64,000 nucleotides of DNA from Escherichia phage FL38. The notes beneath the pieces were generated by a model that saw nothing but the letters and a program-made list of their open reading frames with translations, searched no databases and was not told the DNA's origin. Both the position numbers and the translations under genes were made by a program. This document shows, in pieces, positions 5,438 through 63,881 of the stretch (its first letter is position 1; every line of letters starts with the position of its first letter). The stretch is from the sequence record PP400784. One strand, 5' to 3'.

Positions 5438-5442
5438 TTAAA

Positions 5443-5458
5443 GGGGGCGAAAGCCCCC
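5443..5458 (+). other. GC stem-loop GGGGGC-GAAA-GCCCCC between genes 34 and 35
   Basis: Perfect 6-bp stem with GNRA tetraloop GAAA; no U-tract, so not a classical terminator. Confidence 0.4.
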
Positions 5459-5470
5459 TATGGGGTTATT

Positions 5471-8310: not shown

Positions 8311-8336
8311 AGCGGGGATTATCTCCCCGCTTTTCT
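8311..8336 (+). terminator. stem-loop/terminator after gene 36
   Basis: AGCGGGGA-TTATC-TCCCCGCT followed by TTTTCT. Confidence 0.5.
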
Positions 8337-14351: not shown

Positions 14352-15110
14352 TTACTTGCAAACGTATTGATCTACATCAATTGCGCCACCGAATGTAGGG
14401 TGACGTTTTTCAAATCGAATAGTTCCGTCGTTTGGTTCGAAAACGGAGTATTCATATAGATCTTTCTTGCCAACATTCTTATAAAACCCGCCTTTAGTCA
14501 TAACGGTTTCTTGTACGTTTGCTTTGTGTACGTTGTATTCGTCAATGTATACAAAATCAACCATCTTCCCATTTTTAATGGTTACTTTAAGATCTCCTGG
14601 CTGGTTTCCATATTTTGCATACAGTGGAGCTTCTTTAATTTTGGTGGAAATTCCATCTTTAATACTCCACTCATAACGAACGGTGCATTGATAGGTAAAA
14701 GTTTCGACCTTCGGTTCTTCCACCATTTTTTCTTCCTGTTTCGGTTGTTCTTCTTCAACCTTCGCAGAAGTCTCTGAATCGCTTTCTGACGCGGTTTCTT
14801 CTTTAGGTAATACATTCATCAAGTTTTGGATTTGAGCGTTGTATACAGCCTCCAGTGGCTGAATCTGCCCGATATTGATCATTGTATCACGAACAGTTTT
14901 ATTCCAGTTGAGTTGCTCTTGTTTAAGAGACGGATCAATCTTAACAGCCTTAACATATACTTCATGAAGTTTCGAATCCAGTGCGGAGATTGACTCATTA
15001 GCACAAATAAACTTCTCTGATTTGGTAGTGGCTTTAGCGCAATCAAAGGACGCAGCATTAGCACCGAAAGCAGTAGCGGAAAGAACGATAGCAGCGATAA
15101 TGTTTTTCAT
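14352..15110 (-). CDS. secreted protein with LprI/DUF1311-like N-terminal domain (candidate periplasmic lysozyme inhibitor)
   Basis: Signal peptide MKNIIAAIVLSATAFGANA; then SFDCAKATTKSEKFICANESISALDSKLHEVY, typical of DUF1311; Glu-rich linker; Cys-bracketed C-terminal domain. Confidence 0.55.
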   Translation of the reverse strand: MKNIIAAIVLSATAFGANAASFDCAKATTKSEKFICANESISALDSKLHEVYVKAVKIDPSLKQEQLNWNKTVRDTMINIGQIQPLEAVYNAQIQNLMNVLPKEETASESDSETSAKVEEEQPKQEEKMVEEPKVETFTYQCTVRYEWSIKDGISTKIKEAPLYAKYGNQPGDLKVTIKNGKMVDFVYIDEYNVHKANVQETVMTKGGFYKNVGKKDLYEYSVFEPNDGTIRFEKRHPTFGGAIDVDQYVCK

Positions 15111-15138
15111 AATATATTCCTCAATGTTTTGTCTTGAT

Positions 15139-15173
15139 GGGAGTATCTTACTACTCCCTTAATCCGGTGTCAA
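15139..15173 (-). promoter_or_regulatory. early promoter with inverted repeat (type II): -35 TTGACA, GGGAGTA/TACTCCC arms flanking -10 TAAGAT
   Basis: Minus strand reads TTGACA-17 nt-TAAGAT with a 7-bp palindrome around the -10; upstream of 14352..15110. Confidence 0.5.
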
Positions 15174-15179
15174 CTATTT

Positions 15180-15335
15180 TTAAATTTCTTCTACAGTAAA
15201 GTCTTCAATGTTATTGTGCTCGGAGAACGTTGCCAGACCAGCATTCCATGCATCATCCTCAGAGAAGAATACACCGTAACGTTCATATCCTTTAGCGCCT
15301 TCAAATTTAACCATTAATTTGTGAGTATGTTTCAT
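15180..15335 (-). CDS. hypothetical protein (51 aa; start trimmed to internal ATG)
   Basis: Track ORF 15180..15398 begins inside the promoter palindrome; internal ATG MKHTHK has SD GGAGAATCAAA. Confidence 0.45.
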   Translation of the reverse strand: MKHTHKLMVKFEGAKGYERYGVFFSEDDAWNAGLATFSEHNNIEDFTVEEI

Positions 15336-15366
15336 TTTGATTCTCCTTCGTTGTCTTGATGAGTTC

Positions 15367-15396
15367 ATTGTAGGGGATCGGCGATCCCCTGTCAAC
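15367..15396 (-). promoter_or_regulatory. early promoter with palindromic spacer (type I): GTTGACA-GGGGATCGCCGATCCCC-TACAAT
   Basis: Perfect 17-nt palindrome fills the -35/-10 spacer exactly. Confidence 0.6.
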
Positions 15397-15405
15397 AACT
15401 ATTTT

Positions 15406-15618
15406 TTAATTTTTACCCGCTCGTGCATTAATACGCATTTTCTGAATAGCCATGATCTGGCTTACTGCTTCTTCTTTACGTTCTTGCGTGATAACGTGAC
15501 CAGATTCCGCAAACTCTCCCGCAACTTCTTCTACGATCTCGCGAACTTGAGAACGTCCAAAGATGCGGTTTCCTTCGTAGCTCATAAACTCGGTTACTAC
15601 TTGCTCGATAGATTTCAT
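15406..15618 (-). CDS. hypothetical protein (70 aa)
   Basis: ORF with SD; preceded by promoter/palindrome element. Confidence 0.5.
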   Translation of the reverse strand: MKSIEQVVTEFMSYEGNRIFGRSQVREIVEEVAGEFAESGHVITQERKEEAVSQIMAIQKMRINARAGKN

Positions 15619-15642
15619 GTGATTCTCCTTTCGTTTCGGTGT

Positions 15643-15678
15643 GGGAGTATGTTAATACTCCCATTTCTTTACGTCAAC
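15643..15678 (-). promoter_or_regulatory. early promoter with inverted repeat (type II): TTGACG-17 nt-TAACAT inside GGGAGTAT/ATACTCCC
   Basis: Seen on minus strand upstream of 15406..15618. Confidence 0.5.
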
Positions 15679-15684
15679 CAGTTT

Positions 15685-15927
15685 TTAGAAATTTTTCGCT
15701 TCTTCTTCGGTCATCATCACCGCGCATTCGTGCATAACTTTGAAAACCGGATCAATCATATCGAATGCTTCGCGGGACAGTTTACGAGAAGCGATTTTGA
15801 TTGCTTCTACGTCTTCTACTACAGGAACAAAAACAGTTTTCAGTTCATCGAGAACGGCAGCTTCTTTTTCATTCAGGAAGATACCAGCGTCATACAGTGC
15901 AACTTCGATAACATTAACTTTAACCAT
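15685..15927 (-). CDS. hypothetical protein (80 aa)
   Basis: ORF in dense minus-strand array. Confidence 0.5.
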   Translation of the reverse strand: MVKVNVIEVALYDAGIFLNEKEAAVLDELKTVFVPVVEDVEAIKIASRKLSREAFDMIDPVFKVMHECAVMMTEEEAKNF

Positions 15928-19364: not shown

Positions 19365-19389
19365 CTAAGAAAGGCCGCGCAAAGCGGCC
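19365..19389 (-). terminator. stem-loop/terminator AGGCCGC-GCAAA-GCGGCCT
   Basis: 7-bp GC stem followed on minus strand by TTTCTT. Confidence 0.45.
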
Positions 19390-19397
19390 TATGTTGA

Positions 19398-23710: not shown

Positions 23711-23776
23711 ATAAGTCAACCTTTTGTTTTCGATGGGGACATTATGATATATCCCCGATCCAGTGTCAACAGATTT

Positions 23777-24076
23777 TTAATCTTTTTTCAATGCATCCAT
23801 TACTCGCTCTGCGATCAGTTCTCGTAAGCACTGATAACCATGATATTTGATGGCAATGTCACGCAGATCATTAACCAGTTCCCGTACTTCATGGTCTTTC
23901 AGATCGTCTCTGTATTTCGATTTAACCGTGTCTTTAGGTGGATTGTGGATAACCTGAAAACCTTGTTCTGCAATCACTGCGGCTTCTCGCTGGCGTTCAT
24001 GTTGTACTGTATTTTTGATCAGGTCTACTTCCATGAACTTTGTCATGCTCATCATCATGTTATTCTTTTTGCTCAT
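23777..24076 (-). CDS. hypothetical protein (99 aa; start trimmed to MSKKNN)
   Basis: Track N-terminus reads through the promoter/palindrome; internal ATG has SD GAGGA. Confidence 0.5.
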   Translation of the reverse strand: MSKKNNMMMSMTKFMEVDLIKNTVQHERQREAAVIAEQGFQVIHNPPKDTVKSKYRDDLKDHEVRELVNDLRDIAIKYHGYQCLRELIAERVMDALKKD

Positions 24077-24141
24077 TATTAAATCCTCATAAACGAAAAG
24101 GGAGACTCCCATTATAGAGAATCTCCCTTGTATGTCAAGTG

Positions 24142-35520: not shown

Positions 35521-35575
35521 AATATAATCCTCTCTAGATATGAAAAAGGGGCACGTAGCCCCTTTACTACCATTG

Positions 35576-36646
35576 TTATGCTAACATATCTTCGATTTCT
35601 TTGTCAACTGCTTCGTCGCTGATCACTTGCCCCAGCTTATAATGATCGTTGATTGCTTCGTTAAACTTATCGTTTGTCAGAAGTGGTTTCCAGAACTCAA
35701 TGCTATTGGTTTCTTTAGCACGGAACTTGCGTTCTTCGGTTTCCATCTCTCCGGTCTCGGTATTTAGGATTGAACGGGAATACCAGCCGTTTGACGGTTT
35801 CACTACCCAGCCTAACTCTACAGCCAATTCCAGCAAGCCGGAATAAGGATCGATGCCACCGCTAAATGTTACGCTAATCGGGAACTTCGATTTTTCTTTA
35901 ACGGTTCGTGATTTTTCCGCATTCAGGATAAAATCATAACCAGTAATTTCGGTTCCTTCTTTCTGCTGACGACGACCAATAATGAAAACTTCATTGGCTG
36001 AATACATCGCGCCCGTACCGCCGGACATAACGGTCTTACTAAACATTTCTTGCGTTTCGTAAGTGTGGTTAATAGCGATGCACGGGATATCATTCATAGT
36101 CAGATACGGCGTAACCATACGGAACAAGCCTTTAAGTGCTTTCGCTCGCGTCATATCCTGTGCGGATTTCTCATTAATCGCGTCTTCAACTTCTTTTTTA
36201 CTTGCTAAGTTACCGATTGAGTCAATAAAGATGATCACTTTATCTTCACGGGTAATTTGCTCAAGCTGGTTCATGATTTCAAATTTAAGTTCTTCGATGT
36301 TCTTGATTGGAACATGCACCACGCGATCAGGATCTACACCCATAGATTCAAGATAAGCGGGTGTAATACCGAACTCAGAATCAAAGAACAAACACGCCGC
36401 ATCAGGATTCTGTTTCATGTATGCACTAACACAAGTTAATCCCATGTTTGATTTAAAGTGCTTAGACGGACCAGCAAAGAAAATCAGACCAGATTGAAAG
36501 CCTTTTTTAAGATCACCTGAAAACGCAATATTCAGCATCGGGATCTTAGTGCGAGTATTTGTTTTTTCGTTAAAGAAGCTGGATTTAGACAGTACCGCAG
36601 TAGTTTTCAGGGTAGAGTTCTTTTTCAGTTTTTCCAGTACAGACAT
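35576..36646 (-). CDS. uvsX: UvsX recombinase (RecA-like)
   Basis: 356 aa; Walker A FFAGPSKHFKS as in T4 UvsX. Confidence 0.9.
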   Translation of the reverse strand: MSVLEKLKKNSTLKTTAVLSKSSFFNEKTNTRTKIPMLNIAFSGDLKKGFQSGLIFFAGPSKHFKSNMGLTCVSAYMKQNPDAACLFFDSEFGITPAYLESMGVDPDRVVHVPIKNIEELKFEIMNQLEQITREDKVIIFIDSIGNLASKKEVEDAINEKSAQDMTRAKALKGLFRMVTPYLTMNDIPCIAINHTYETQEMFSKTVMSGGTGAMYSANEVFIIGRRQQKEGTEITGYDFILNAEKSRTVKEKSKFPISVTFSGGIDPYSGLLELAVELGWVVKPSNGWYSRSILNTETGEMETEERKFRAKETNSIEFWKPLLTNDKFNEAINDHYKLGQVISDEAVDKEIEDMLA

Positions 36647-41618: not shown

Positions 41619-41639
41619 GGGGAGTATTTTATACTCCCC
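41619..41639 (-). other. stem-loop between genes 45 and 44
   Basis: GGGGAGTAT-AAA-ATACTCCCC followed by GTTTT on minus strand; possible partial terminator or RNA structure. Confidence 0.4.
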
Positions 41640-41651
41640 ACAAACATTATA

Positions 41652-42341
41652 TTAGTCGGTGTAGCTGGAGTCAAGGTCACACGCGATCATATAAGATACG
41701 GTTTCACTTGCCAGCCATACAGCCTTACGGCGAGTGAAGCTCAGTTTGTAATCGCCGAAGTCAGTAGCAACCAGTTTCATGTTATCTTTACGAATAAAGA
41801 AATGGAAGTCTGCGGTTCCGGTATATTCGCCCATATCAAGACAAAACATCTCATTAGGATTATTTTTGTCAATCTCTTCCCAACCTTTGATCATCAGACG
41901 ACCATCAATCGGAAGAAATTCAAGGCGATCCACTTTAAGCTGATTGCTCATTTTCATAAGCTGTTTCAGATCGTCATTGCTCAGTTCGTAATCTACATCG
42001 CTTGCAGGTGGAGTAACTCGGCCTTTCGGTGATACGATAGCAGCAGCACTAGCACCAGGGTAATTAATTTTCAGACGATCATTAGACACACGAATGTTAC
42101 CAGTGCGGTCATCAACCGTAATATCTGCTTCATCGCCTACCAGATTCAGAATACCCAAGAAAGAGTTAAGATCATAGATCCCAATTTCGTGTTCCAGTTC
42201 TTGATTCAGAGTCGCTTCACCATATACAACGTTTGTCATGTTTTTGGTGATCAGGACGTTTCCTTTTTTCAGGATGATACCTGGGTTAATAGCGGAAAAG
42301 TTTTTCAGGGTAGCAATGGTTTCTTTAGTCAGTTTCATCAA
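41652..42341 (-). CDS. 45: sliding clamp
   Basis: 229 aa; N-terminus MKL.K.T.A.LKNF..IN.GI.LK and overall similarity to T4 gp45 (228 aa). Confidence 0.9.
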   Translation of the reverse strand: MMKLTKETIATLKNFSAINPGIILKKGNVLITKNMTNVVYGEATLNQELEHEIGIYDLNSFLGILNLVGDEADITVDDRTGNIRVSNDRLKINYPGASAAAIVSPKGRVTPPASDVDYELSNDDLKQLMKMSNQLKVDRLEFLPIDGRLMIKGWEEIDKNNPNEMFCLDMGEYTGTADFHFFIRKDNMKLVATDFGDYKLSFTRRKAVWLASETVSYMIACDLDSSYTD

Positions 42342-46163: not shown

Positions 46164-46423
46164 CGTACAGACCCCATAGATCCACGCGCAATAACATTCT
46201 GGGTAATATCAGCAACCTTACGGGATACGATGTTTGTTAGCCCCTCTTTGGTGATATTTTCACGATCAAATGGGATTTCGTCATGAGTCCACAAACCATA
46301 GTTAGATCGAAATGATAGCATATACTGACCATCTCGCACAACCTCAAATACATGGATCTTAGTGAATTTCGATAAACCTTCGTTGATTTCTTTCAATGCA
46401 TTAGTAATCATAACAACCTCCAA
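46160..46423 (-). CDS. hypothetical protein (87 aa)
   Basis: ORF preceded by a type I promoter. Confidence 0.5.
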   Translation of the reverse strand: MEVVMITNALKEINEGLSKFTKIHVFEVVRDGQYMLSFRSNYGLWTHDEIPFDRENITKEGLTNIVSRKVADITQNVIARGSMGSVR

Positions 46424-46436
46424 TCAATTTTTAGAG

Positions 46437-46466
46437 AGTATAACGGGGATTTCTCCCCGCGTCAAC
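46437..46466 (-). promoter_or_regulatory. early promoter with palindromic spacer (type I): TTGACG-CGGGGAGAAATCCCCG-TATACT
   Basis: Spacer is an inverted repeat; overlaps the gp47 stop. Confidence 0.55.
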
Positions 46467-47491
46467 TAACTTTTTGCGCTATTTACCTCGGCTAAAAGTT
46501 CATCAGAAATACGCTTGACCGCCGCAAGTTCTTCCGGTTCTAGGTTTTGTTCTTCCAGATATTCATATACCATCTGAATAGTGCTTTTAACTTCAATAAC
46601 ACCTGTTTCCTGTGATGCGCTACTCTCCAGTTTATGGACCACTTTTAGCTTGTGTACAACGGCCTCTAACGCGCTTTCTAACTTAGTTAACCCATTATCA
46701 GCAACCGTTGCAATAAGACGCACACTAAGCCCCTTAAAGCGTTCTACATCGATTTTATCATCTGACGGGTAAGTGATACGCACATGATAAGTTTTGTCAT
46801 TCTGGATAAACTCTTTTTTGTGTGTATCGGTATCGAATACCCAAAACCCACGCGGATCGTTTTCGTCACCCGCCGTTAGTGTGTATGGTGTACCGATATA
46901 CGTTACATTACCGCCATCGCTGATAGTATGAAAATGACCGGAAAACACTTCACGGTATTTCTTGAGGAAGTCCGCGCTATAACCTTCGGATTTTAGCCCT
47001 TTATAGAAATAGTAACCGGACAATTCCCAATGGCCTACACAATATTCGCTGAATGAGTTTTGAATAAACTCTAAAATCTCTGATTTATTGTCATCACAAA
47101 ACCACGGGAACAGATCAAATGATACACCATCAAAGGTAACTGTTTCCGGTTTATCGATAACCTTAATGCAATCATACTGGCTTAACACTTCACGCGGTGC
47201 GTTAGGCTGGATCTTGTTTCGTTTAAACATATCATGGTTCCCGACCGTGATATAACAAGTAATTCCAGCCTCTTCCAGTAATGGGATGACCTTAGTACGG
47301 TTAAATTTCATGGTTTCATGGGTAATTGCTTTTCGGCAATCAAACCAATCCCCTGTTTGAATCCATGTCTTAATATTATGCTCTTTGGAGTATTCAACCG
47401 CCTTCTTGATGGTATCAAGAATATACTCATGCACCCACGGATCATCGCCACCGATACCAGTATGCAGATCACCTAAAAGCAAAATTTTCAT
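46466..47491 (-). CDS. 47: recombination endonuclease subunit (SbcD/Mre11-like)
   Basis: 341 aa; MKILLLGDLH phosphoesterase motif; T4 gp47 is 339 aa. Confidence 0.9.
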   Translation of the reverse strand: MKILLLGDLHTGIGGDDPWVHEYILDTIKKAVEYSKEHNIKTWIQTGDWFDCRKAITHETMKFNRTKVIPLLEEAGITCYITVGNHDMFKRNKIQPNAPREVLSQYDCIKVIDKPETVTFDGVSFDLFPWFCDDNKSEILEFIQNSFSEYCVGHWELSGYYFYKGLKSEGYSADFLKKYREVFSGHFHTISDGGNVTYIGTPYTLTAGDENDPRGFWVFDTDTHKKEFIQNDKTYHVRITYPSDDKIDVERFKGLSVRLIATVADNGLTKLESALEAVVHKLKVVHKLESSASQETGVIEVKSTIQMVYEYLEEQNLEPEELAAVKRISDELLAEVNSAKS

Positions 47492-51354: not shown

Positions 51355-52156
51355 TCAAAAATTCAACTTCACGACGTTTAATGTCTTCTTGAAGGTCTTT
51401 AATCTTCTGGCGATCTTGCATGATTTCATCCATCTTGTCAAGTGCCGCAATGAAATCATCGAAACGTTCAAAGGTTTTACCTTCATTTGCTTCGCCAAAT
51501 TTAACCATTGTCAGGCCGTAACGACTACTAAACAGACGTTTCAACTGTCCAACGATCTTAGAATCAGTGGTTATAACTTCCAATTCTTCTACTTCACGAA
51601 AGAATTTTCTATCAGAATCAATAAACCAGCTAGTTCCTTTATGGTCTCTATCTTCGGTTGCGCTCATTAGAGTATGGTCTTTACCATCAATTTCAATTAC
51701 ATCAATTTGCCCACATGGACGAACATTTTTAACAGTAAAAGGTCTATAATTTATTGCTCGTGCAATAACATAATTAAGATTAGATACGTTTTCAGCATAA
51801 TGACAGAAGTCGGTCATAGCATTCGCATCTTTCCAAGTATAAGTTTTACCAACTTCCCATTTCTGGGGAACTTCTTCAACTTCACGAAAGAATTTTCGAT
51901 CGAATGGACTAAAGAAATATGTTGCAGTCCAAATGTCTTTTCCTGTAGCAGTTTTCGCCGTATGATAAACACCGTCTAGCTCTATTGCATCAATCCAACC
52001 GTTACCATCGATCTCGATGATGGTAAATGGCTTGTCACCAATAGCTGCACTAATATCGCTGTTAAGTGGAGAAAGAACACCTTCTCCGTTAGTAATAAAC
52101 TCAGTTTTAGCGTTTTCATCTTTCCAGGTGTAGGTTTTACCAATTTCCCATTTCAT
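51332..52156 (-). CDS. repeat-domain family protein (2 tandem domains + helical tail)
   Basis: MKWEIGKTYTWKD...DRKFFREVEE occurs twice, then tail. Confidence 0.6.
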   Translation of the reverse strand: MKWEIGKTYTWKDENAKTEFITNGEGVLSPLNSDISAAIGDKPFTIIEIDGNGWIDAIELDGVYHTAKTATGKDIWTATYFFSPFDRKFFREVEEVPQKWEVGKTYTWKDANAMTDFCHYAENVSNLNYVIARAINYRPFTVKNVRPCGQIDVIEIDGKDHTLMSATEDRDHKGTSWFIDSDRKFFREVEELEVITTDSKIVGQLKRLFSSRYGLTMVKFGEANEGKTFERFDDFIAALDKMDEIMQDRQKIKDLQEDIKRREVEFLIGKERGW

Positions 52157-52168
52157 AATATATTCCCC

Positions 52169-52669
52169 TTAACCGATTTTATCAAGTTCGTTTAATGCTT
52201 TCTCTGCTTCCTGTATAGCTTGCACCCTTTCCGGCATTTTGTCAAGAAAATCTTTCAACTCTTCAAAACTGGAGATATGACGCAATGCGTTAGCACCGAT
52301 AGCCGCATGTGATTTGCATTCAAAGCGGATTTTATAATTATCCATCGCCAATTTGAGAAGGTCTATTAGATCATATTCATGACCAGGCAATAAAACTTCT
52401 TTGAAGCACGCTCGGTCGCCATCGGAAAACCATATATTATCACCAACATCGATAGAACTAATATAATCCCCTTCGTGATTATAGATTGAACGTACATTAC
52501 CCCAACGGTCTACCGTAGCGACAGTAAATGGTTTATCTAGATATGTAAACACACCATCAATATTAGGTTTTTGTTCGTAACGCCAACAATCACGCAAAAT
52601 GCGCTTTTCGTCCTCACCAACCAACTTATATGTCTTCCCTTCTTCCCATTTCATAATATCATCTCTCAT
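52169..52669 (-). CDS. repeat-domain family protein (1 domain + helical tail)
   Basis: MKWEEGKTY...KPFTVATVD...DRACFKEV, tail with LKDFLDKMP. Confidence 0.6.
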   Translation of the reverse strand: MRDDIMKWEEGKTYKLVGEDEKRILRDCWRYEQKPNIDGVFTYLDKPFTVATVDRWGNVRSIYNHEGDYISSIDVGDNIWFSDGDRACFKEVLLPGHEYDLIDLLKLAMDNYKIRFECKSHAAIGANALRHISSFEELKDFLDKMPERVQAIQEAEKALNELDKIG

Positions 52670-53195
52670 TTTTGATACGTGATTCTAATTGGATCATACG
52701 GTCGCGCGTTTGTTTGTATTCTCGGATAGCACCGATCCGGCTAGGCATACCATCCAGTACGCTCTTAATACCTTCTAGGGTAGTGATTTTAGCAATGCTA
52801 TTATGCAACCCCATCTTATCGATCAACTGAATGTCGTAGGCTTCCATAAGCAGACCCAGACGTTCTAAAGTTAGGTCTTCTTCTTTTTCTTCAGAATCTG
52901 GAATCTTAGGTTCAATAATAACTTCGGTAAAGAAACGACGCTCACCCGACCAAAACCACACACCGGAACAGCCAATAGGGGATTCTTTTAACGTCATAGA
53001 GTCGAAATCACTACCGATAATAGTAATTTCTCTAACATCACCATCATCGTCAATGTCTTCTACCCTAAACGGGCGACCAGCCAACAAGTCAACAATACAT
53101 CTGTTAATAGACGACGAAAATTTAGTCAGTTCGGCTTTCGACGCTTCGCATTCAATCTTGTAAGTTTTACCAACTTCCCATTCCATAATAATCAC
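52659..53195 (-). CDS. repeat-domain family protein (1 domain + helical tail)
   Basis: MEWEVGKTY...RPFRVEDID...ERRFFTEV, tail with LDGMP. Confidence 0.6.
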   Translation of the reverse strand: MIIMEWEVGKTYKIECEASKAELTKFSSSINRCIVDLLAGRPFRVEDIDDDGDVREITIIGSDFDSMTLKESPIGCSGVWFWSGERRFFTEVIIEPKIPDSEEKEEDLTLERLGLLMEAYDIQLIDKMGLHNSIAKITTLEGIKSVLDGMPSRIGAIREYKQTRDRMIQLESRIKNER

Positions 53196-53706: not shown

Positions 53707-53842
53707 TTACCCCGAACTCGTTTACAATCTGCGCTTTATAGTAACCACCGCGAGATGCTAATAGATAAGCTGGGCTTAGGTATTCGTATTCACGGATTTC
53801 TACTTGTGCGTTTTCAGTTTCCCAAATCAGTAAAGTCCACAT
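53690..53842 (-). CDS. hypothetical small protein (50 aa; start trimmed)
   Basis: Track start lies inside the promoter palindrome; internal ATG MWTLLIW has SD AGGAGAATCAAAT. Confidence 0.4.
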   Translation of the reverse strand: MWTLLIWETENAQVEIREYEYLSPAYLLASRGGYYKAQIVNEFGVIEYEF

Positions 53843-53884
53843 ATTTGATTCTCCTGTAAAGTTGTATCTCGTCTTGATGAATAT

Positions 53885-53914
53885 AGTATAGGGGATCTCG
53901 CGATCCCCGTCAAG
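53885..53914 (-). promoter_or_regulatory. early promoter with palindromic spacer (type I): TTGACG-GGGATCGCGAGATCCCC-TATACT
   Basis: Inverted repeat fills the spacer. Confidence 0.55.
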
Positions 53915-53917
53915 CAT

Positions 53918-54466
53918 TTATTTTAAATTTTTTCGAATGTAGTCAGACCATTCCTTCCCTGTCAGTTCGGTCCCATTCTGGAAACTGAAATATTCATACG
54001 GCATCGAGTCAAGATAAAACAGGATCATACATCGCGCCATATAATACCAATCACGATTAAAGTAAACTACGTTATCACCAGTACCATCAACCCCTTTATC
54101 ATAACCATCGCGGGTACGGGCGACCCATTGAATAGTATCATTTTTCTCGCGGATCGTAACAGGTTCCCAATATCCAGCACATCCAGCATGACCACACGAA
54201 CAAGTCAGGAAATATTGACCTTTTGCTTTGTTGTCATCCCATTCACGATGGATTGGTTCGATCTCGTGAAACAGTGCTAAGCAATCATGATTATGCAACA
54301 CTGGCTTACCATCAATCAATGCATGGAATGTATACAAACGACCAGTAGACAAATAGCTATCCTCACGCTCAACCAGTTCAATAGCAATCTTTTTAGCTCG
54401 TTCTTTGTGTCGTTGTGCTTTACGCTTACGGTTTAATGATTTCATATTCACCTCACACATTATCAA
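53918..54466 (-). CDS. hypothetical protein (182 aa) with Cys cluster CSCGHAGCAGY
   Basis: ORF between nrdD and nrdG. Confidence 0.5.
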   Translation of the reverse strand: MIMCEVNMKSLNRKRKAQRHKERAKKIAIELVEREDSYLSTGRLYTFHALIDGKPVLHNHDCLALFHEIEPIHREWDDNKAKGQYFLTCSCGHAGCAGYWEPVTIREKNDTIQWVARTRDGYDKGVDGTGDNVVYFNRDWYYMARCMILFYLDSMPYEYFSFQNGTELTGKEWSDYIRKNLK

Positions 54467-55002: not shown

Positions 55003-55069
55003 GTTGTCCTCTCGTTGTTTTCGATGTGAGCATTATACATTAGCTAATCATGTTGTCAACACCCCAAAA

Positions 55070-57528: not shown

Positions 57529-57563
57529 GGGAGTATTATAGCATACTCCCTTCGCATGTCAAG
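57529..57563 (-). promoter_or_regulatory. early promoter with inverted repeat (type II): TTGACA-16 nt-TATAAT within GGGAGTAT/ATACTCCC
   Basis: The -10 TATAAT sits in the loop of an 8-bp inverted repeat. Confidence 0.55.
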
Positions 57564-58762: not shown

Positions 58763-58797
58763 GGGAGTATCTTACTACTCCCGTTTCATCATGTCAA
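58763..58797 (-). promoter_or_regulatory. early promoter with inverted repeat (type II): TTGACA-17 nt-TAAGAT within GGGAGTA/TACTCCC
   Basis: Palindrome identical to the one at 15139. Confidence 0.55.
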
Positions 58798-59378: not shown

Positions 59379-59707
59379 TTCACTAATTGAACAGCACGGA
59401 ACAGAATGCGCTCACACGGAAGCAGCATAAATTCCCAACGCGGATCAAAGTCTTTAGCGGTGTATGTTTTCCCATCAACCGAGATTTCACTTACATAACC
59501 AACAGGTGACACTTTAAGAACAGTAAACCCATTCTTGATGACTTCGTAGGTATATTTCACCCCTTCGTATTCATCATCTAAGAAGTCTTTATGTGCTTGC
59601 TCAGATTTAAAAACATAGGCAACACCGGATTTAAACATCTTACGCATTGTTGATTCTCCTTCTTGATTAGATGGGAGTATTTTACTACTCCCATTTCTTA
59701 TTGTCAA
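59375..59707 (-). CDS. repeat-domain family protein (single domain, no tail)
   Basis: MFKSGVAYVF...GFTVLKV...ERILFRAV. Confidence 0.55.
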   Translation of the reverse strand: MTIRNGSSKILPSNQEGESTMRKMFKSGVAYVFKSEQAHKDFLDDEYEGVKYTYEVIKNGFTVLKVSPVGYVSEISVDGKTYTAKDFDPRWEFMLLPCERILFRAVQLVK

Positions 59708-62869: not shown

Positions 62870-62938
62870 AATATAATCCTCACATCGTTCATTTGATGCG
62901 GTTATTATATGATAACCGCATTTTCATGTCAACAGTTT

Positions 62939-63313: not shown

Positions 63314-63536
63314 AGTATGCTTTTTCTACATACTCGCCATTGATCCAAGCGGCAGTAACAATCAGAGTGGTCCAGGTAGATCCGCTCTCAACGGTAAAGG
63401 TTTTAATACCCAGCTTCGCTGCCAAGTCGAACGCAAACCGGACGCAACCACGACAGGAAGTGATGTTGGAAGTTTTGATTTTAAAGCCACCGCGAGTTTT
63501 AGAAATTTCTACTTTAGCGAAAGACAGGTTGCTCAT
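63258..63536 (-). CDS. hypothetical protein (92 aa; start trimmed to MSNLSFAK)
   Basis: SD AAGGAGAATCAAA before the internal ATG; the track start reads through the promoter. Confidence 0.45.
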   Translation of the reverse strand: MSNLSFAKVEISKTRGGFKIKTSNITSCRGCVRFAFDLAAKLGIKTFTVESGSTWTTLIVTAAWINGEYVEKAYFDIFYDYEEKCFYALQDM

Positions 63537-63578
63537 TTTGATTCTCCTTAAGAAAGTGTGTTTCGTTTTGATGTGTGT

Positions 63579-63608
63579 AGTATAGGGGATCACCGATCCC
63601 CTGTCAAC
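63579..63608 (-). promoter_or_regulatory. early promoter with palindromic spacer (type I): GTTGACA-GGGGATCGGTGATCCCC-TATACT
   Basis: Perfect 17-nt palindrome as spacer. Confidence 0.6.
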
Positions 63609-63623
63609 AACTTTTTTATGATT

Positions 63624-63881
63624 TTAGTGAATTAACTCTACACCAAAATGAGGCACAGAGAACGCCTTACAAAACACATATTCATCATGTTTAGGAATCG
63701 CCCCTAACCGCTCTATTTCGCTCGCTAACACTATAAACTGTTTATCTGGTGCATATGCCTTGCGTGCTTCAACAACGCACGGAAAACGCGTTTTAGAGAG
63801 TTCTGGATAGTTTTCCGAATCCAGCAGGACAATGAATACCCTGTTACATTGATTGTAGAATCCTGTTTTTGATTTCATCAA
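63624..63881 (-). CDS. hypothetical protein (85 aa)
   Basis: ORF. Confidence 0.5.
   Translation of the reverse strand: MMKSKTGFYNQCNRVFIVLLDSENYPELSKTRFPCVVEARKAYAPDKQFIVLASEIERLGAIPKHDEYVFCKAFSVPHFGVELIH

Follow-up and report, generated by a model that had tools for sequence, protein, structure and literature searches.

The window, by which we mean the whole stretch of 64,000 nucleotides that was analysed, carries its early genes on the minus strand, and the GC skew agrees with this. The 3 kb around position 15367 are 93-98% identical to 58 deposited phages, including W115, RB49, phi1, JSE, and GEC-3S. With the genus taken from those of the 58 records that were opened, the window is, judging by its sequence, a Krischvirus (RB49-like) genome. 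It is mosaic, the best match being W115, kvi, or PTE-Eco09 according to the locus. Many 6-bp palindromes are nearly absent from it, as in restriction-site avoidance: TCCGGA occurs 0 times against 26 expected, AAGCTT 0 against 17, GAATTC 0 against 16, and GGATCC 0 against 14.

Four intergenic gaps of 60-93 bp on the minus strand are each occupied over their entire length, starting at the upstream stop codon and ending at the ATG of the next gene, by a compact cassette (Table 1). The order of elements is the same throughout: stop codon, A-rich UP-like tract, -35 box (TTGACA or TTGACG), 17-nt spacer, near-consensus -10 box (TAtAcT), 5'UTR, and ATG. The stop codon is found 0-16 nt before the -35, and in the 15 nt that precede this box 10-14 positions are A or T, with A-runs. 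The 5'UTR is conserved (..CATCAAGAC..AGGAGAATCAAA), and the downstream edge of the cassettes is a Shine-Dalgarno (SD) sequence, AGGAGAATCAAA-ATG or GGAGGTTGTT-ATG. The genes that follow are small, with 50-92 codons. Cassette 1 was aligned with RB49, phi1, ELT4, and SSG23. Cassette 2 lies within the conserved replication/recombination module, where gene 47 encodes a subunit of the recombination endonuclease, and the 50-aa ORF of cassette 3 is located upstream of nrdG.

Table 1. Coordinates of the four spacer-palindrome cassettes and of the other hairpin-bearing promoters in the window.
Feature	Position	Strand	Sequence and remarks
Cassette 1	15333..15408	minus	orthologue of the RB49 ORF264/ORF263 gap; stop TAA 15408-15406 to ATG 15335-15333 of 51-aa ORF
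Cassette 1, spacer-palindrome promoter	15367-15396	minus	GTTGACA GGGGATCGCCGATCCCC TACAAT
Cassette 1, -35 TTGACA	15390..15395	minus	A-rich tract before -35, 14/15 nt A/T
Cassette 1, palindrome	15373..15389	minus	GGGGATC-GCC-GATCCCC; 7 bp stem (8 with flanking A/T), 3-nt loop; -16.3 kcal/mol, z -3.7
Cassette 1, -10 TACAAT	15367..15372	minus	
Cassette 2	46409..46468	minus	gene 47 stop TAG 46468-46466 to ATG 46411-46409 of ORF038 orthologue
Cassette 2, spacer-palindrome promoter	46437-46466	minus	GTTGACG CGGGGAGAAATCCCCG-T TATACT
Cassette 2, -35 TTGACG	46460-46465	minus	
Cassette 2, palindrome	46444..46459	minus	CGGGGA-GAAA-TCCCCG; 6 bp stem (7 with G-U pair), 4-nt loop; -15.4 kcal/mol
Cassette 2, -10 TATACT	46437-46442	minus	
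Cassette 3	53840..53920	minus	RB49 ORF054/ORF053 orthologue; stop TAA 53920-53918 to ATG 53842-53840 of 50-aa ORF
Cassette 3, spacer-palindrome promoter	53885-53914	minus	gCTTGAC-GGGGATCGCGAGATCCCC-TATACT; outside strict pattern, first base C not G
Cassette 3, -35 TTGACG	53908-53913	minus	last G common to stem
Cassette 3, palindrome	53891..53908	minus	GGGGATC-GCGA-GATCCCC; 7 bp stem, 4-nt loop; -13.9 kcal/mol, z -3.0
Cassette 3, -10 TATACT	53885-53890	minus	
Cassette 4	63534..63626	minus	RB49 ORF071/ORF070 orthologue; stop TAA 63626-63624 to ATG 63536-63534 of 92-aa ORF
Cassette 4, spacer-palindrome promoter	63579-63608	minus	GTTGACA GGGGATCGGTGATCCCC TATACT
Cassette 4, -35 TTGACA	63602-63607	minus	
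Cassette 4, palindrome	63585..63601	minus	GGGGATC-GGT-GATCCCC
Cassette 4, -10 TATACT	63579-63584	minus	
-10-overlap PeSL	15145..15173	minus	TTGACA...GGGAGTA-gtaaga-TACTCCC; stem overlaps -10 TAAGAT
-10-overlap PeSLs with common stem	15145, 15649-15677, 57535-57562, 58769-58797, 59679-59707		GGGAGTA-...-TACTCCC; five sites
-10-overlap position class, other stems	24111-24138, 62904-62932		from promoter-site scan
PeSL-like site, GC hairpin downstream of -10	41619..41674	minus	GGGGAGTA...TACTCCCC
Hairpin downstream of -10, further sites	near 35545-35607 and 19372-19390		
Hairpin upstream of -35	promoter 55032-55059		one site

All four promoters combine a -35 of the form TTGAC[AG], a spacer of 17 nt, and a -10 of the form TA[TC]A[AC]T, and the spacer holds an inverted repeat with stems of 6-8 bp around an unpaired centre of 3-4 nt. 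The preliminary description had reported a perfect 17-nt palindrome filling the spacer of at least four minus-strand promoters, each reading GTTGAC(A/G). The four sites are real, but "perfect 17-nt" overstates them in view of the unpaired centres, and the repeat in cassette 2 is 16 nt plus one T. Similarly, cassettes 1, 2, and 4 fit the strict pattern GTTGAC[AG]-N17-TA[TC]A[AC]T, but cassette 3 has CTTGAC and misses the pattern solely through its first-base C. "Type I", the label attached to these promoters in the preliminary description, is a term of its own. The motif search that it proposed was run: the strict pattern matches the window six times, where shuffles would give 0.02. A perfect stem of at least 6 bp is present in the spacer of exactly four of 49 minus-strand promoter-like sites (matches to TTGAC-N17-19-TANNNT), namely those of cassettes 1 to 4. 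The frequency of such a stem in a random genomic 18-mer is 0.0061 (about 0.6%), giving a binomial P of 2.3e-4 for four of 49, and 0 of 2000 spacer shuffles reached four stems. The preliminary description had reckoned with the case that the palindromes are no commoner than chance, and these figures go the other way. Folded as RNA, the hairpins have energies of -13.8 to -16.3 kcal/mol, with z from -2.2 to -3.7.

An explanation by chance would hold that GC-rich spacers became self-complementary by accident, or that the copies are recent duplicates without selection on pairing. Clear paralogy links three of the four copies, which are thus not independent events; a repeat search independently groups them as one 61-nt family (D2). 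Copies cross-match over about 90 bp at 75-82% identity, with cassette 2 sharing the promoter core only. Accident does not account, however, for the enrichment over both genomic 18-mers and shuffled spacers, for the unrelated stem of cassette 2 (CGGGGA/TCCCCG), for the constancy of the arms in 58 genomes against the turnover of the loops, or for the presence of compensatory and wobble variants. The same architecture, with different stems, also exists in unrelated phage contigs. We consider chance or by-product a practically negligible explanation.

The four sites are PeSL (promoter-early stem-loop) cassettes of RB49-like phages, known since 2010. Our finding is a rediscovery and no new element is involved. 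PeSLs were described in the coliphages RB49 and phi1 by Arbiol, Comeau, Kutateladze, Adamia and Krisch (Genome Biol Evol 2010; PMC2839356), who defined them as a sigma70-like early promoter that has an AT-rich tract upstream and carries a GGGG...CCCC stem-loop. The promoters fit the E. coli sigma70 consensus. The authors' count was 52 for phi1 and 51 for RB49, most of them upstream of ORFans in hyperplastic regions and a few in core modules, and they distinguished five subclasses of stem-loop position, the commonest lying between -35 and -10 or overlapping the -10 (PMC2839356). Comeau et al. 2014 extended PeSLs to T4/PST and KVP40/nt-1 (PMC4122927). The preliminary description had likened the promoters to PeSLs of RB49-like phages, and this attribution proved correct on every point that could be tested, from the Krischvirus genome and the published definition to near-identical cassettes in RB49. 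The window cassettes share with the class the promoter, the AT-rich tract, the stem-loop, the packaging from stop codon to ATG with a conserved SD, the repetition over about 90-100 bp, and the sequence and positional identity with RB49. A location upstream of ORFans in hyperplastic regions, with indels between close relatives, also a PeSL trait, is seen at cassettes 1 and 3, with one break at cassette 4 and none at cassette 2.

The comparison with published PeSLs that the preliminary description had suggested was made on the named RB49 copies, extracted from the RB49 genome record. RB49 PeSL206/205 (GTTGACAGGGGATCGGTGATCCCCTATAAT) is identical to window 63579-63608 at 29 of 30 positions, and RB49 PeSL211/210 (TTGACAGGGGATCACGTATCCCCTATACT then ACACACATCAAAACGAAACACACTTTCTTAA) has its hairpin type and 5'UTR in common with the same site. 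Both are of the spacer type and nearly identical in sequence to the window copies; RB49 PeSL210/209, 192/191, 191/190, and 187/186 are likewise of the spacer type. At three of the four orthologous positions in RB49, early promoters were predicted by Nolan et al. 2006 (Pe:158983, Pe:33349, and Pe:43045; PMC1524935), and these are the orthologues of cassettes 1, 3, and 4, respectively. The orthologues of cassettes 2, 3, and 4 carry promoter annotations in the record of GEC-3S, a genome in which cassette 1 is deleted. There is no essential difference between the window cassettes and the PeSLs of RB49 and phi1; the window represents a different Krischvirus isolate, and in one of its four loops the triplet is GCC where RB49 has GGC. 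The picture for the window is unchanged: work on the type phage of the same genus had described and named the element, and assayed part of it, in 2010.

Hairpins at other positions relative to the promoter boxes are also present (Table 1). A stem that overlaps the -10 box is a commoner class in the window than the within-spacer class with its four sites. The repeat finder recovered both main families without a prior, D2 for the spacer type and D1, D3, and D4 for the -10-overlap type. The position classes of the hairpins in the window reproduce the published PeSL distribution.

From this layout, a working model of the cassette can be proposed. Host sigma70 RNA polymerase would start about 7 nt downstream of the -10. 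Because the transcript start would lie downstream of the palindrome, the palindrome would be absent from the promoter's own transcript, and the hairpin could consequently act only on DNA or on RNA from upstream. Polymerases coming from upstream would transcribe the palindrome into a GC-rich RNA hairpin a few nucleotides past the upstream stop codon. This hairpin would terminate or attenuate read-through, and each small gene would be insulated as its own transcription unit. The hairpin probably sits in the spacer because these 17 bp are largely free of sequence constraint, which would make for the shortest combination of terminator and promoter. In addition, the many copies per genome, similar over about 90 bp, would provide portable homology for the phage recombination machinery, with the flanked small genes being deleted, inserted, or swapped. 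Overall, we assign a probability of about 0.88 to this composite cassette of promoter, read-through terminator or attenuator, and portable homology. The general importance of PeSLs is documented: they equip every small early gene with a promoter and an insulator of its own, and they are a scattered source of homology through which accessory genes are gained, lost, and swapped in T4-type phages.

Two parts of this model have been assayed for other copies. In the published promoter and terminator assays, which used paralogous RB49 copies on a plasmid reporter outside infection, the promoter activity of a wild-type clone of PeSL206/205 reached about 13,000 Miller units, and the PeSL211/210 stem-loop lowered downstream lacZ like rrnB T1 (PMC2839356). 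Most other promoter clones of PeSL193/192 or PeSL206/205 gained point mutations in the -35 or -10, which the authors read as toxicity caused by excessive strength (PMC2839356). By analogy with the assayed copies, we infer that the four window copies fire and terminate. A stem-loop in read-through transcripts was among the functions raised in the preliminary description; it matches the published proposal and is partly shown in that work. The drop in the reporter seen by Arbiol et al. could also have come about other than by termination.

None of the four sites has a U-tract after the hairpin (CCCC-UAUACU, CCCC-UACAAU). A consensus terminator scan around cassette 1, the sole site in the scanned region, called no terminator, and TransTerm in Nolan et al. 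2006 placed none at the orthologous RB49 positions (PMC1524935). We have rejected a canonical intrinsic terminator on the lack of a U-tract and of terminator calls at cassette 1 or the RB49 orthologues. Since both are lacking, efficient intrinsic termination would be non-canonical. Termination would have to use the A/U-rich -10 after the stem, which may stand in for the U-tract, or else take the form of partial attenuation.

Across the 58 genomes the arms are invariant and the loops vary in both sequence and length, with 3, 4, or 5 nt (GCC, GCGA, CACGT). Some copies have a compensatory change from T-A to G-C in the stem (GGGGAG...CTCCCC). Others have G-T in the stem (GGGGGTC...GATCCCC), which pairs in the sense RNA and breaks the dyad symmetry of the DNA. 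In an alignment of 17 sequences, 95.8% of cells are paired, compared with 82% in shuffles and at most 72% in slid controls, a result we discount as biased, since the search pattern itself fixed the outer four pairs and the rows from outside Krischvirus had been selected for possessing stems. Taken together, loop variation and the compensatory and G-T stems favour, at the level of sequence, an RNA hairpin selected for pairing. In the spacer type, it is the pairing that is conserved and not the sequence. A scan of the whole window at the Rfam gathering threshold gave 0 matches to known RNA families.

The same variants bear on the possibility that the palindrome GGGGATC-N3-GATCCCC is an operator, at which a dimeric phage or host protein jointly switches off (or on) these early promoters. 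The symmetry of the dyad is perfect, and a protein bound at this position would stand in the way of RNA polymerase. The same arms recur at eight or more paralogous sites per genome and do not vary between genomes that are otherwise different. A specific DNA-binding protein that may target GGGG...CCCC is also a speculation of Arbiol et al. (PMC2839356). However, the distance between half-sites changes with the centres of 3, 4, and 5 nt, which a hairpin can tolerate and a dimer usually cannot, and the G-T stems retain pairing in the sense RNA at the cost of DNA dyad symmetry. Other PeSL subclasses use unrelated stems (GGGAGTA, AAAGGGGC, AGGCCGC) at other positions, and a palindrome is absent from many early promoters whose hexamers are the same. 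A fixed half-site, spacing, and position are not what we find: the stems are GGGGATC, GGGGAG, GGGGGTC, and CGGGGA, with centres of 3-5 nt. We rejected the operator on its variable half-site spacing, the wobble stems, and the other positional subclasses, and regard it as very improbable. Of the three functions offered in the preliminary description, it is the least supported.

A Dam-methylation switch was considered and rejected as well. Three of the four palindromes hold GATC twice, and Dam is encoded by the genus, but GATC is observed 368 times in the window against 355 expected (Markov), and cassette 2 and the other PeSL subclasses are without GATC.

The portable-homology part of the composite cassette can be examined by asking where related genomes cease to match. 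With a 401-bp query centred on the site of cassette 1, the match begins only at window position 15396 or 15416 in 23 of the 58 genomes, exactly at the -35/AT-rich edge, and a few other genomes, including phi1, carry an insertion at this locus. The order in the window and in RB49 is ORF264, spacer PeSL, ORF263, -10-overlap PeSL, ORF262. In GEC-3S, ORF263 and one PeSL are missing and the junction lies inside AAAAATAGTTGACA. An additional gene, ORF263.1, is present at the ORF264/263 locus in phi1 and was given as phi1-specific (PMC2839356). In MIZ6, an ORF263.1-like gene is joined with the second PeSL, which makes a fourth arrangement at this locus. At cassette 3, homology is lost 13-22 nt upstream of the -35 in 10 of the 58 genomes, and in SSG23 an unrelated upstream gene is joined at the breakpoint. 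At cassette 4, a single genome breaks, at the SD/ATG edge. Cassette 2, which is core and adjoins gene 47, shows no rearrangement in the 58 Krischvirus records, all of which are collinear there.

Breakpoints at the edges of the cassettes are what PeSL-mediated gene shuffling leads one to expect, and the two-genome comparison of 2010 is now extended to 58 genomes in which homology breaks at these edges. A role in recombination is not evident at every copy, as the unrearranged cassette 2 demonstrates. Circular recombination products (mini-circles) between PeSLs were previously detected by PCR and sequenced (PMC2839356). A recombination site, the remaining function put forward in the preliminary description, agrees in this respect with the published proposal and is partly shown.

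At orthologous sites, the loop variants include reverse-complement pairs (GGT/ACC and GGC/GCC), with identical flanks in two cases. The ORF205 site, where flanks are identical, has GGT in RB49, ACC in W115, and ACA in SFHK24. GGT and ACC are found at the ORF186 site, GGC, GCC, and GGT at the ORF263 site, and GGT, GGC, and GCC at the ORF070 site. A step from GGT to ACC requires three simultaneous changes and amounts to an inversion, so at least one loop inversion must have occurred. It could have spread by repeated flipping or by gene conversion from one cassette to another. Neither the word "inversion" nor a mention of reverse-complement loop pairing occurs in the 2010 PeSL paper's main text (PMC2839356). 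These loop pairs, and the promoter-hairpin layout in unrelated phages, may be new observations.

Inverted loops raise the question of whether the palindrome acts mainly as DNA. It would then form a hairpin or cruciform, and nicking or binding of this structure, for instance by endonuclease VII or gp46/47, would start the recombination that moves the flanking genes, with the terminator effect being secondary. The loop pairs at ORF205 and ORF186 (GGT/ACC) and at ORF263 and ORF070 (GGC/GCC) point in this direction, as does the need for at least one loop inversion, which hairpin-templated strand switching would give. The phage encodes gp49 and gp46/47, and one mini-circle junction was mapped by Arbiol et al. 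in the loop of the stem-loop (PMC2839356). The breakpoints that we mapped, however, are in the AT-rich tract/-35 edge or at the SD/ATG edge and not in the palindrome, and the G-T stems favour the RNA reading. Gene conversion between paralogous cassettes with identical arms could also spread the loop pairs, in place of flipping in situ. Moreover, for a cruciform to extrude from duplex DNA, 7-8 bp of stem is very little. We find a mainly DNA-level role unlikely and retain the composite cassette, with its hairpin acting on read-through RNA, as the preferred reading.

A further proposal goes beyond that reading. The loops may flip-flop by hairpin-templated strand switching, with the DNA folding in vivo and providing the initiating lesions of shuffling, and the layout may be a convergent, general terminator-promoter design in virulent phages. 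We put this forward tentatively, as possible but on balance doubtful. Were the loop flip-flop true, palindromes would fold in DNA in vivo and might initiate PeSL-mediated shuffling. Were the layout general, it would represent a minimal design for a terminator-promoter junction rather than a peculiarity of Krischvirus.

As a composite cassette, the PeSL resembles the back-to-back intrinsic (Rho-independent) terminators and promoters of compact phage genomes and the "morons" of lambdoid phages (single genes with a promoter and terminator of their own), where a GC hairpin follows a stop codon and a promoter and an autonomous small gene come next. Unlike in those, the window hairpin lies inside the promoter spacer, is without a U-tract, and leaves canonical predictors silent. 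The PeSL cassette is also itself a proposed recombination substrate, which is not so for morons. An engineered E. coli promoter with a palindromic spacer, from Horwitz and Loeb in 1988, reportedly responds to supercoil-driven cruciform extrusion, and it is like the window sites in having an inverted repeat between -35 and -10. A cruciform-dependent promoter is expected to need a palindrome with arms longer than 7-8 bp. The window sites differ from that promoter in that their arms are kept in a form that can pair as an RNA hairpin, G-U pairs included, with no sign of supercoiling control.

A scan of IMG/VR with TTGACN-GGGG-N9-CCCC-TANANT also returned matches in contigs unrelated to Krischvirus, with stems of 6-8 bp. 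Outside the T4-like phages, the promoter-hairpin layout occurs in Serratia phage BF (a jumbo phage of 357 kb) and its relatives and in several metagenomic contigs, where the stems are unrelated. An IMG/VR contig of 173.8 kb, for which megablast gave no match among deposited phages, has the same promoter-hairpin architecture.

Some promoter-early stem-loop cassettes (PeSLs) of RB49-like phages carry a hairpin of the form GGGGATC-NNN-GATCCCC, and its three-nucleotide centre is the only portion of the cassette that changes quickly, as judged from the two window copies together with L001 (RB49), L046, L048, L049, L062-L066, L025, L050 and L058. Across 36 instances, the loop reads GGT in 11, GGC in six, GCC in five and ACC in four. 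Variants at orthologous sites pair as reverse complements. The ORF205 and ORF186 sites have a GGT/ACC pair within identical flanks, and the ORF263 and ORF070 sites (named by RB49 orthologues) have a GGC/GCC pair. Such pairing implies at least one inversion of the hairpin loop. Inversion is possibly recurrent, or else the inverted loop may have spread between cassettes via gene conversion.

Cassette edges also coincide with changes in gene content. At least four gene arrangements of ORF264-ORF262 occur among close relatives (the window and L001-L004), varying by the presence or absence of ORF263 and of an ORF263.1-like gene, and every junction between them lies at a PeSL edge. The repeat family that includes three of the window's four spacer-type PeSLs (D2) has a diverged fourth member, whose promoter stem, GGGGATATATCATAATGTCCCC, overlaps the -10 box rather than filling the spacer, and this promoter resembles RB49 PeSL199/198. 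The diverged member suggests that the positional subclasses can interconvert.

Beyond Krischvirus, several viral contigs from metagenomes and one jumbo phage, the 357-kb Serratia phage BF, show the spacer-hairpin design with unrelated stems. These promoters share a consensus TTGACA, a 17-nt spacer filled by a GC hairpin of 6-8 bp, of which the search pattern imposed only the outer four pairs, and TATAAT or TATACT.

Two other strong GC hairpins in the window are flanked by T- and A-runs and sit in a block whose GC skew is opposite in sign to that of the remaining window. Unlike these, PeSL hairpins are without a U-tract. The two look like ordinary, possibly bidirectional, terminators. A separate 31-nt repeat family (D5) has four copies of 74-100% identity spaced 291-532 nt apart, each containing ATG-(A/G)AATGGGAA on the minus strand. 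The copies look like conserved starts of small paralogous genes in a tandem array upstream of the nrdG region.

Coordinates of the features discussed
Feature	Locus	Position	Detail
Loop variant	window	15373-15389	ORF263 site
Loop variant	window	63585-63601	ORF070 site
ORF264-ORF262	window	15100-15700	
Diverged D2 member	window	23727-23787	
D5 array	window	51840-53191	
GC hairpin	window	5442-5459	AGGGGGC..GCCCCCT
GC hairpin	window	8311-8331	AGCGGGG..CCCCGCT
Spacer-hairpin promoter	L021	632-660	Serratia phage BF
Spacer-hairpin promoters	L018, L031, L017		
Spacer-hairpin promoters	L006/L009, L010, L013/L043, L014/L024/L029, L039		small contigs

Throughout the window, 6-bp palindromes are strongly avoided relative to Markov expectation (observed/expected: TCCGGA 0/26, AAGCTT 0/17, GAATTC 0/16, GGATCC 0/14, AGCGCT 0/13, ACCGGT 1/13, AGTACT 0/11, CCGCGG 0/9.5, CAGCTG 0/9.4, AGGCCT 0/8.8). 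GATC is not avoided in the window (368 observed, 355 expected). The palindrome deficit fits restriction-site avoidance by a T4-type phage with unmodified cytosine and its own Dam.
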